Origin: Eledone cirrhosa
Taxonomy: Eukaryota
Assembly (NCBI GenBank): GCA_964016885.1
Contig: OZ024743.1
Coordinates: forward strand, 112,902,001 to 112,966,000
Reading direction: 5' to 3'
Length of the DNA stretch: 64,000 bases
Shown: piece by piece, positions 3,474 to 4,825 of the stretch
Position numbering within the stretch: position 1 is the first letter of the stretch
Layout of the letters: each line of letters begins with the position of its first letter
Translations under genes and position numbers: made by a program
The notes under the pieces: model-generated
Seen by the model: the letters and a program-made list of their open reading frames with translations, nothing else
The model's database searches: none
Told to the model about the DNA's origin: nothing

Positions 3474-3836
3474 TATATATATATATATATATATATATAT
3501 ATATATATATATATATATATATATATATATATCAATAAATGCGAAACAAGGCCTTGTCGGCTTATCTCCCCTTGTTTGCTGAGATTAAGGTAAGTTAGTT
3601 TGTCACTACTCTAAAACAATAGCATACGGTCTTCAAAATGCTTTTAATTAAGCATAAAGTGTATTGCAAAATACATTATATATACATTCATATATATATT
3701 GCTATTTCAGAGCTCCAATTCTAATTTTTAATTTCTGCCTGACCGGCAACCGCTCTGTATAATCAGTTCCTGATTATTTACTAGAATTCTATAAGAATAT
3801 AACATCAGTGATCTCAGTAGAAAGGAGGGAGTAGTT

Positions 3837-3881
3837 AGCCTTGATAAGCATCAATAATTGCGAAACAAGGCCTTATCGGCT
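3837..3881 (+). ncRNA. Type I hammerhead ribozyme, U3-A8 variant (copy with stem III mismatch, AUC site)
   Basis: AGCC-TTGATAA-GCA(tcaataat)TGC-GAAA-CAAGGCCTT-ATC-GGCT. Confidence 0.7.
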
Positions 3882-4155
3882 TATCTCCCCCTGTTTGCTG
3901 AGATTAAAGTAAGTGAGTTTGTCACTACTCTAAAACAATAGCATACGGTCTTCAAAATGCTTTTAATTAAGCATAAAGTGTATTGCAAAATACATTATAT
4001 ATACATTCATATATATATTGCTATTTCAGAGCTCCAATTCTAATTTTTAATTTCTGCCTGACCGGCAACCGCTCTGTATAATCAGTTCCTGATTATTTAC
4101 TAGAATTCTATAAGAATATAACATCAGTGATCTCAGTAGACAGGAGGGAGTAGTT

Positions 4156-4200
4156 AGCCTTGATAAGCATCAATAAATGCGAAACAAGGCCTTGTCGGCT
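4156..4200 (+). ncRNA. Type I hammerhead ribozyme, U3-A8 core variant
   Basis: Stem I AGCC/GGCT, core TTGATAA, stem II GCAT/ATGC with CAATAA loop, GAAA, 12-nt palindromic stem III ACAAGGCCTTGT. Predicted cleavage after GTC (4196). Confidence 0.85.
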
Positions 4201-4825
4201 TATCTACCCTTGTTTGCTGAGATTAAAGTAAGTGAGTTTGTCACTACTCTAAAACAATAGCATACGGTCTTCAAAATGCTTTTAATTAAGCATTAAGTGT
4301 ATTGCAAAATACATTATATATACATTCATATATATATTGCTATTTCAGAGCTCCAATTCTAATATATATATATATATATATATGTGTGTGTGTGTGTGTG
4401 TGTGTGTGTGTGTGTGTGTGTGTGTGTGTGTGTGTGTGTGTGTGTGTGTGTGTGTGTGTGTGTGTGTGTGTGTGTGTGTGTGTGAGTGTGTGTGTGTGTG
4501 TGTGTGTGTATAGAATTACAATTTAGCTTCAGGCATAGTTGTATACTGGTATGTATTAGAATTTCATATTTCAGAAGAAATACGGTATGTTTATAATAAA
4601 CATAAAGAGAGCCGTAGCTATGTATATAAAATTTAGAATGGTTGTCCAAAAAGGAACAGAAAATAACCACATTTATAAAAGGGTCGCTATACATTAGTGG
4701 AGAGGGTACATAGTTATTTTCGTTTGTTTGAAATCATATAAAATACACACACATACATACATGTGTGTGTGTGTGTGTGTGTGTGTGTGTGTGTGTGTGT
4801 CAAAGAGAGAGAGAGAGAGAGAGAA

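Follow-up and report, generated by a model that had tools for sequence, protein, structure and literature searches.

The tandem repeat at positions 3531-4363 of the window, by which we mean the whole 64,000-nucleotide stretch of the Eledone cirrhosa genome that was analysed, is probably a non-autonomous non-LTR retrozyme that was inserted into a (TA)n microsatellite by a Neptune-like PLE, likely by way of a circular monomer RNA. That it is a hammerhead element mobilised by a PLE is very likely; the circular-template step is fairly likely. By sequence criteria the element is a non-LTR retrozyme whose core variant is already known, and it would work like the others of that class. The original prediction missed the main anatomy: the repeat is a retro-insertion that has PLE-type ends and belongs to a dispersed family, rather than a satellite confined to one place. 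The insertion and its flanks have the following features.

3531..4363, forward strand: whole insertion, a single 5'-truncated arm of 833 bp with its 3' end at the tailed site
3531..3558, forward strand: 5'-truncated remnant, monomer positions 292-319, with the hammerhead 3' half and an intact GTC site, without the 5' core
3559..3877, forward strand: full unit 1, between successive cleavage sites
3837..3881, forward strand: damaged hammerhead copy, mismatched in stem II (3858) and stem III (3875)
3878..4196, forward strand: full unit 2, the reference monomer, its RNA predicted to be highly self-paired
4055..4063, forward strand: TGCCTGACC motif, lying 10 nt beyond the tailed end site in the 3' direction
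4130..4223, forward strand: long distal helix around the hammerhead, in which 4130-4147 pairs with 4207-4223, with compensatory changes
4156..4200, forward strand: intact type I hammerhead motif, from the hammerhead pattern scan and covariation
4197..4363, forward strand: 3' partial unit, monomer positions 1-167
4330..4363, forward strand: PLE-type tail of about 34 nt, from the short end site (after ACATTCAT, 4329) to the tailed end site (TTCTAAT, 4363)
3474..3532, no strand: left flank (TA)n, the target microsatellite, from the repeat scan
4364..4509, no strand: right flank, (AT)n then (TG)n

The repeat scan of the window, which is rich in AT and in microsatellites, gave a period of 319 with 2.6 copies and 97% matches, in agreement with the 319-bp tandem originally proposed; the layout is 28+319+319+167 bp between (TA)n tracts. 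The short end site at 4329 shows up as 4337 because of an AT tract. The ORF list over the insertion contains no frame of 150 aa or more across the element, there are no LTR features, and an ORF for RT plus GIY-YIG between pLTRs is absent from the retrozyme element, which is therefore not an autonomous PLE. Tandem units within about 170-400 nt, each with one type I hammerhead and without coding capacity, are those of a non-LTR retrozyme, and the description of the units as retrozyme-like was apt. A target-site duplication is not discernible within the (TA)n. The window copy is a one-armed, tailed, ageing insertion product.

Several other repeats share the window. Adjoining the left flank, at 3285-3473, is a near-perfect 100-bp palindrome with an 80-nt extension, flanked by (TA)n tracts. 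It is a short head-to-head insertion from a third family, very common and TA-targeting, that recurs at 48880-48938. A diverged (79-82%) head-to-head remnant of the 319-bp retrozyme superfamily, with one short and one tailed arm, lies at 7214-7476. On the reverse strand, 8834-10083 is a 468-bp tandem of 2.3 copies with a minimal type I C3-G8 hammerhead, which ends in (TA)n and represents a second, unrelated retrozyme family, which has relatives at 12813-13203, 20280-20867 and many other loci; in common with the 319-bp family it has TGCCTGACC, or a motif similar to it, at a similar distance of about 10 nt past its 3' end. Broken LINE-type reverse transcriptase frames, judged by translations alone, occur at 14188-16802 (reverse strand) and 43145-45367 (forward strand), a 233-bp tandem (2.1 copies, 78%) at 23128-23607, and a 14-bp minisatellite of 96 copies at 36184-37531.

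Hammerhead positions are numbered here in the conventional way. The core as printed in PMC7151607 agrees with this numbering. A hammerhead scan of both window strands found AGCC-TTGATAA-GCAT/ATGC-GAAA-CAAGGCCTT-GTC-GGCT exactly once, at 4156-4200. Stem I is formed by 4156-4159 and 4197-4200, and stem II by 4167-4170 and 4177-4180 (GCAT/ATGC); the core TTGATAA (4160-4166) places U3 at 4160 and A8 at 4165, GAAA occupies 4181-4184, the palindromic 12-nt stem III spans 4184-4195, and the predicted cut falls after 4196. The U3-A8 core and the palindrome are thus as first described, and the motif has the type I pattern 3-UGA-N-8-A ... GAAA ... UH with a Watson-Crick 3-8 pair and with stem I open. 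The statement that each complete unit contains the motif does not hold, since the copy at 3837-3881 has a T at 3858, giving a U-U mismatch in stem II, and an A at 3875, giving a C-A mismatch in stem III and the triplet ATC. In the first copy (3531-3562) the core has no 5' half. Two consecutive complete hammerheads, the mark of an 'active' retrozyme according to Li et al. (bioRxiv 10.64898/2026.07.22.740005), are present elsewhere in the genome, for example at locus L230, and not at 3531-4363, which has one intact. Release of the 319-nt monomer 3878-4196, as originally proposed, would have to rely on this one ribozyme and on the damaged site 3877. Because that site is damaged and the substrate strand of site 3558 is intact, a 638-nt dimer (3559-4196) is a plausible product, at least as plausible at this locus as the monomer.

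The hammerhead motif is far above chance. Across the 3.0-Gb genome there are 123 exact matches to the 46-mer and 727 to a core pattern that is less strict, while the controls (reversed, for the 46-mer) gave none. A minisatellite with a chance hammerhead-like motif is accordingly the least credible of the explanations considered, even though Rfam, in a scan of positions 1-10000, returns a weak HH9 match alone, far under threshold (20.9 bits against a gathering score of 52), and one of the two copies at 3531-4363 is damaged. Besides the empty controls, the dispersal of the family, its fixed paired ends and the covariation, that of U3-A8/C3-G8 included, speak against it.

As to dispersal, the reference monomer matches at least 173 genome places (40 of 1,893 candidates scored), and similar copies are scattered over many chromosomes. 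The first 100 listed of the 727 core matches comprise 98 with U3-A8 and 2 with C3-A8, and G8 occurs in only 1 of the 727. There are related subfamilies B-E, with units of 306-320 nt over five subfamilies: B has GCTT/AAGC as stem II, C has GTAC/GTAC and a different 12-nt palindrome, D has the canonical C3-G8, and E has an 11-nt palindrome and a long array. When nine natural variants were aligned, 93% of cells were paired, compared with 38-52% in slid controls, and both sides had changed in 10 of 30 pairs, including pairs of stems I (2 of 4), II (3 of 4) and III (1 of 4) and the 3-8 pair, which is U-A in seven variants and C-G in two. The covariation score was equalled by 0 of 500 shuffles; as the variants are related and hand-picked, such shuffle counts are support rather than probabilities. 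Since compensatory changes occur in all stems, we argue that the ribozyme fold was selected. A long-range GGTC/GACC pairing, also noted, is invariant. A lower substitution rate in the core (0.58% versus 1.8%) was dropped as evidence because core patterns had guided the choice of loci and alignments have their edges there. Pieces of the retrozyme family also occur in contigs of four sequencing runs of undefined kind (three organism labels), which are silent on expression and ends.

The anatomy of the insertions was determined in 125 distinct loci of subfamilies A and B (25 best DNA matches and 100 from pattern lists, five duplicates removed), a sample drawn from a larger set. Their 215 arms end at the short site (83), at the tailed site (103) or elsewhere (29), which makes 186 fixed ends at two sites about 34 nt apart. 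(TA)n lies beyond 151 of the 186 fixed ends and beyond only 3 of the 29 others. The 5' ends, by comparison, are variable and spread over the unit. The sample contains 85 head-to-head pairs and one tail-to-tail locus, and at most head-to-head joints the arms overlap by 1-6 nt. Both ends could be classified in 64 pairs: 61 combine a short with a tailed end, 3 have two tailed ends and none has two short ends (p = 2e-15 versus independence). Subfamilies C and D follow suit, with eight short/tailed pairs and one two-tailed pair in 23 loci of subfamily C, and at least seven short/tailed pairs in 24 loci of subfamily D. Even without the internal AT tract, subfamily D still has an end where ATTCAT is succeeded by TA; the short site therefore lies near position 133, and the length of the tail is about 34 nt. 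An accumulation of 5' ends at the cleavage site, which would have marked cleaved linear templates, was considered and rejected: 18 ends fall at positions 1-20 where 12.1 are expected, only two of them at position 1, an excess that is not significant and is subject to selection bias.

Truncation at the 5' end with an adjacent inverted copy, a 30-40-nt tail on one end and a bias for microsatellites are the marks of PLE-type insertion. An inverted copy, a tail that is often on one end and a TA bias have been described for PLEs (PMC8557442, PMC3846280), and EN+ PLEs of the Neptune/Nematis type share with the Eledone retrozyme the 5' truncation, the inverted 5' copy and the 30-40-nt tail on one end (PMC8557442, PMC3846280, PMC11167929), as well as the TA-microsatellite bias and a hammerhead just upstream of the 3' ends. 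Unlike them, the retrozyme has no ORF, the whole element being the 319-bp unit repeated up to several times, and it has no significant homology to the one pLTR that was tested in depth.

That pLTR belongs to the candidate partner. There are 10,595 candidate GIY-YIG domains in the genome, 150 of which were scored, and 45 places were examined. At L116:4309-7930 (reverse strand), a 938-aa frame combines RT (28 bits, just under the cut-off), GIY-YIG and a CX4CX2C linker, the last being a mark of Neptune or Nematis (PMC8557442). Two pLTRs about 5 kb apart, with long (CA)-rich repeats, each contain a U3-A8 minimal hammerhead. After the 5' pLTR the first ATG lies upstream of the frame, so this copy looks interrupted near its start. 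The L116 family ends in (TA)n at two sites, of which the tailed one is TTCTAAT, as in the retrozyme, and forms short/tailed head-to-head pairs in eight clear loci, two of them inside the window; its tail differs in length (about 68 nt, versus about 34 nt in the retrozyme). Homology between the unit and a PLE pLTR was found in none of the 45 PLE loci, and the match to the L116 pLTR is limited to the hammerhead core and the last 7 nt, with a local score that was reached by 108 of 300 shuffles. As there is no significant similarity beyond these parts, the L116 family is a candidate partner, not an established one, and the sequences do not show the retrozyme to be its derivative. With 45 of 150 listed GIY-YIG places examined, the actual partner may belong to a different family. 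Truncated pLTR ends of the L116-type Neptune-like PLE lie in the window at 4820-5035, 19653-20033, 32136-32290, 33109-33318 and 49034-49367, two of them as head-to-head short/tailed pairs.

The U3-A8 pair, described as rare in the original prediction, is abundant in this genome: the pattern with N7 other than U has 17,955 matches, against 3 in the control, and the first 100 listed come mostly from the L116-type family. Nor is it new, having been reported in about 1,300 Schistosoma PLE motifs, with minimal motifs weak in vitro and circular templates proposed (PMC4209133). A further U3-A8 family has GCCC/GGGC as stem II, and a similar one occurs in L244.

True PLE pLTR remnants of the same anatomy thus abound, and the units could in principle be truncated pLTR fragments of an unfound autonomous PLE, with tandems generated by local DNA duplication; L229, L230 and the long array do show local homogenisation or higher-order repeats. 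We nevertheless consider this very unlikely. In the 125 A/B loci and 47 C/D loci the arms extend 5' into more units, an inverted arm or flank, and a tblastn search of the A/B loci minus the last 40 found PLE coding sequence in only one (L079), where it is not joined 5' to the arm. Moreover, 49 of the 186 arms, at unrelated loci, cross the cleavage junction at least twice.

Altogether, the junction is crossed by 163 of the 186 arms (114 once, 43 twice, 4 three times and 2 four times). Among 217 counted read-throughs none has an indel at the cut itself and 28 differ in length elsewhere; L042, a locus outside the count, has 3 nt missing at the junction. Rare variants are common to units of one arm in 42 of 455 comparisons (9.2%) and to opposite arms in 22 of 281 and 18 of 273 (6.6-7.8%), compared with 0.37% between loci, and 70 of 71 two-armed loci contain a single subfamily. 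In L230, a selected long copy, five full units are nearly identical and have four private variants in common. The 27 shared-variant cases comprise 11 with both arms, 3 with a lone arm, 5 with one arm only, 1 by unit position and 7 mixed. Such sharing is in keeping with repeated copying of a single monomeric sequence, as on a circle; linear multimers of homogeneous units, gene conversion or subsequent local duplication would also be compatible with it. The five cases in which a variant is restricted to one entire arm suggest two templates or local duplication. So does L229:1501-3140, where arm units alternate between two variant types, as might come from a heterodimeric template or local duplication.

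The main competitor of the circle is therefore an uncleaved linear multimer transcribed from a long array and inserted by a PLE, with the hammerhead inactive or dispensable. Long arrays exist and could provide such a template: at L241-L242 (G000:C2:207692000-207706000), 14 kb contain at least 42 subfamily E units, which are organised in a higher-order pattern and show internal deletions that recur, and this array has diagnostic variants in common with the dispersed locus L236. The core matches, 455 forward versus 272 reverse, suggest a further array, although a search for the source of this excess led to a different array instead. Read-through of the junction is equally expected from a linear template, ribozyme mutants of an anole PLE still insert (PMC11167929), and the active fold is energetically uphill in all six circles that were folded. 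On the other hand, the array units are heterogeneous, with deletions unseen in L236, only 1 of the 27 shared rare variants follows unit position, and the compensatory changes in all stems argue for a selected ribozyme fold. We regard the linear multimer as improbable, while noting that the heterogeneous array and the alternating-unit locus indicate that processes of local duplication or homogenisation act on the family.

Folding predictions at the level of secondary structure suggest how the ribozyme might be controlled. The monomer folds with z = -6.3. When six natural monomers were folded as circles, the minimum was 2.6-7.2 kcal/mol more stable than the active fold. In subfamilies A, B and C the 5' strand of the core pairs with the palindrome at a probability of 0.95-0.99. 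The palindrome duplex is predicted at -19.5 to -20.1 kcal/mol in A-C, the -19.5 kcal/mol duplex bearing out the idea that stem III is suited to dimers, and at -6.9 in D and -10.5 in E; within a monomer, palindrome 4184-4195 can alternatively fold into a stem of 4 bp capped by a 4-nt loop. Cleavage is thus predicted in dimers, with a quiet monomer, because the monomer is predicted to prefer the inactive fold. Covariation of the inactive helix is weak (equalled by 15 of 500 shuffles), and selection for it is not claimed.

Together, our data suggest a model in which the retrozyme moves by way of a circular RNA and a PLE. The tandem would be transcribed by read-through, the hammerhead would cleave after GUC, most likely as a dimer via the palindromic stem III, and ligation, by analogy, would yield a circle of 316-320 nt. 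A PLE protein would then cut both (TA)n strands, and each 3' end would prime cDNA synthesis at an internal site of its own, the two sites being about 34 nt apart, as the fixed paired ends of the copies suggest. Both cDNAs would cross the ribozyme junction (0 to 4 times in the sample, 6 in the selected long copy), stop variably and meet head to head by microhomology, which would account for the observed joints. For PLEs in vitro, two internal RT starts, extension of both strands, start sites alike between strands and dispensable ribozyme cleavage have been reported (PMC11167929). More tentatively, and with rather more doubt than confidence, we propose a two-ended PLE mechanism that is undescribed: a dimeric RT-endonuclease on one circular ribozyme RNA might prime the double-strand-cut ends asymmetrically, one per internal site, with both copying round the circle, and the U3-A8 core might help to hold the monomer circle in a hairpin that is inactive, leaving cleavage to multimers alone.

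Metazoan retrozymes were defined, with circles shown in invertebrates and PLEs named as candidate mobilisers, by Cervera and de la Pena (2020, PMC7229834), and a link between retrozymes and PLEs was drawn from co-occurrence and pLTR phylogeny by Li et al. (2026, bioRxiv 10.64898/2026.07.22.740005). The Eledone family shares several traits with the metazoan non-LTR retrozymes: its tandem units do not code for protein, measure about 300 bp, are low in GC and contain a single type I hammerhead each, the RNA is self-paired, the copies range from dimers to long arrays, and PLEs co-occur with it. It differs in its U3-A8 core, in a stem III that is a 12-nt palindrome instead of 1-2 bp, and in a tail, head-to-head arms and TA target that are resolved copy by copy; the circles shown there are a prediction here, as is expression. 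Mussel retrozymes are described as being without the tertiary contact between loops 1 and 2 (PMC7229834), and of nine Xenopus retrozyme dimers one cleaved and eight did not (bioRxiv 10.64898/2026.07.22.740005). Dimeric PLE hammerheads are the subject of Lunse et al., cited in PMC6765202.

The Schistosoma mansoni Cercyon PLE hammerheads (PMC4209133) and natural U3-A8 variants (PMC3088659) have the same compensatory pair, which CUGANGA descriptors miss; the latter paper states, citing its reference 32, that such covarying cores are active in vitro. The approximately 1,300 Cercyon motifs are heterogeneous and mostly single and minimal, in contrast to the full stem III in tandem units of the Eledone retrozyme, and the Eledone genome has besides, unlike the Cercyon set, some 18,000 further U3-A8 motifs, mostly of an autonomous PLE. 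Non-autonomous Chlamys elements such as MRC1 (PMC8557442) are likewise PLE derivatives, often head-to-tail and multicopy, with similarity to the partner only near the 3' end; Chlamys elements are described as mostly without hammerheads, target (C)n/(CA)n and are found in green algae. In the main texts searched, few of them from subscription journals, we found no description of a U3-A8 tandem retrozyme or of counts of short/tailed pairing. The U3-A8 core itself is already published; what is new is the copy-level evidence for PLE mobilisation and the strict pairing of ends.

These findings bear on both surveys and mechanism. In a single genome, surveys based on CUGANGA can overlook some 18,000 hammerhead motifs. 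PLE mobilisation of animal retrozymes had been proposed before (PMC7229834), and the Eledone retrozyme shows the full PLE insertion signature in many copies. The mechanics of PLE insertion are an acknowledged open problem (PMC8557442), and the strict short/tailed pairing predicts that priming is two-ended and asymmetric.
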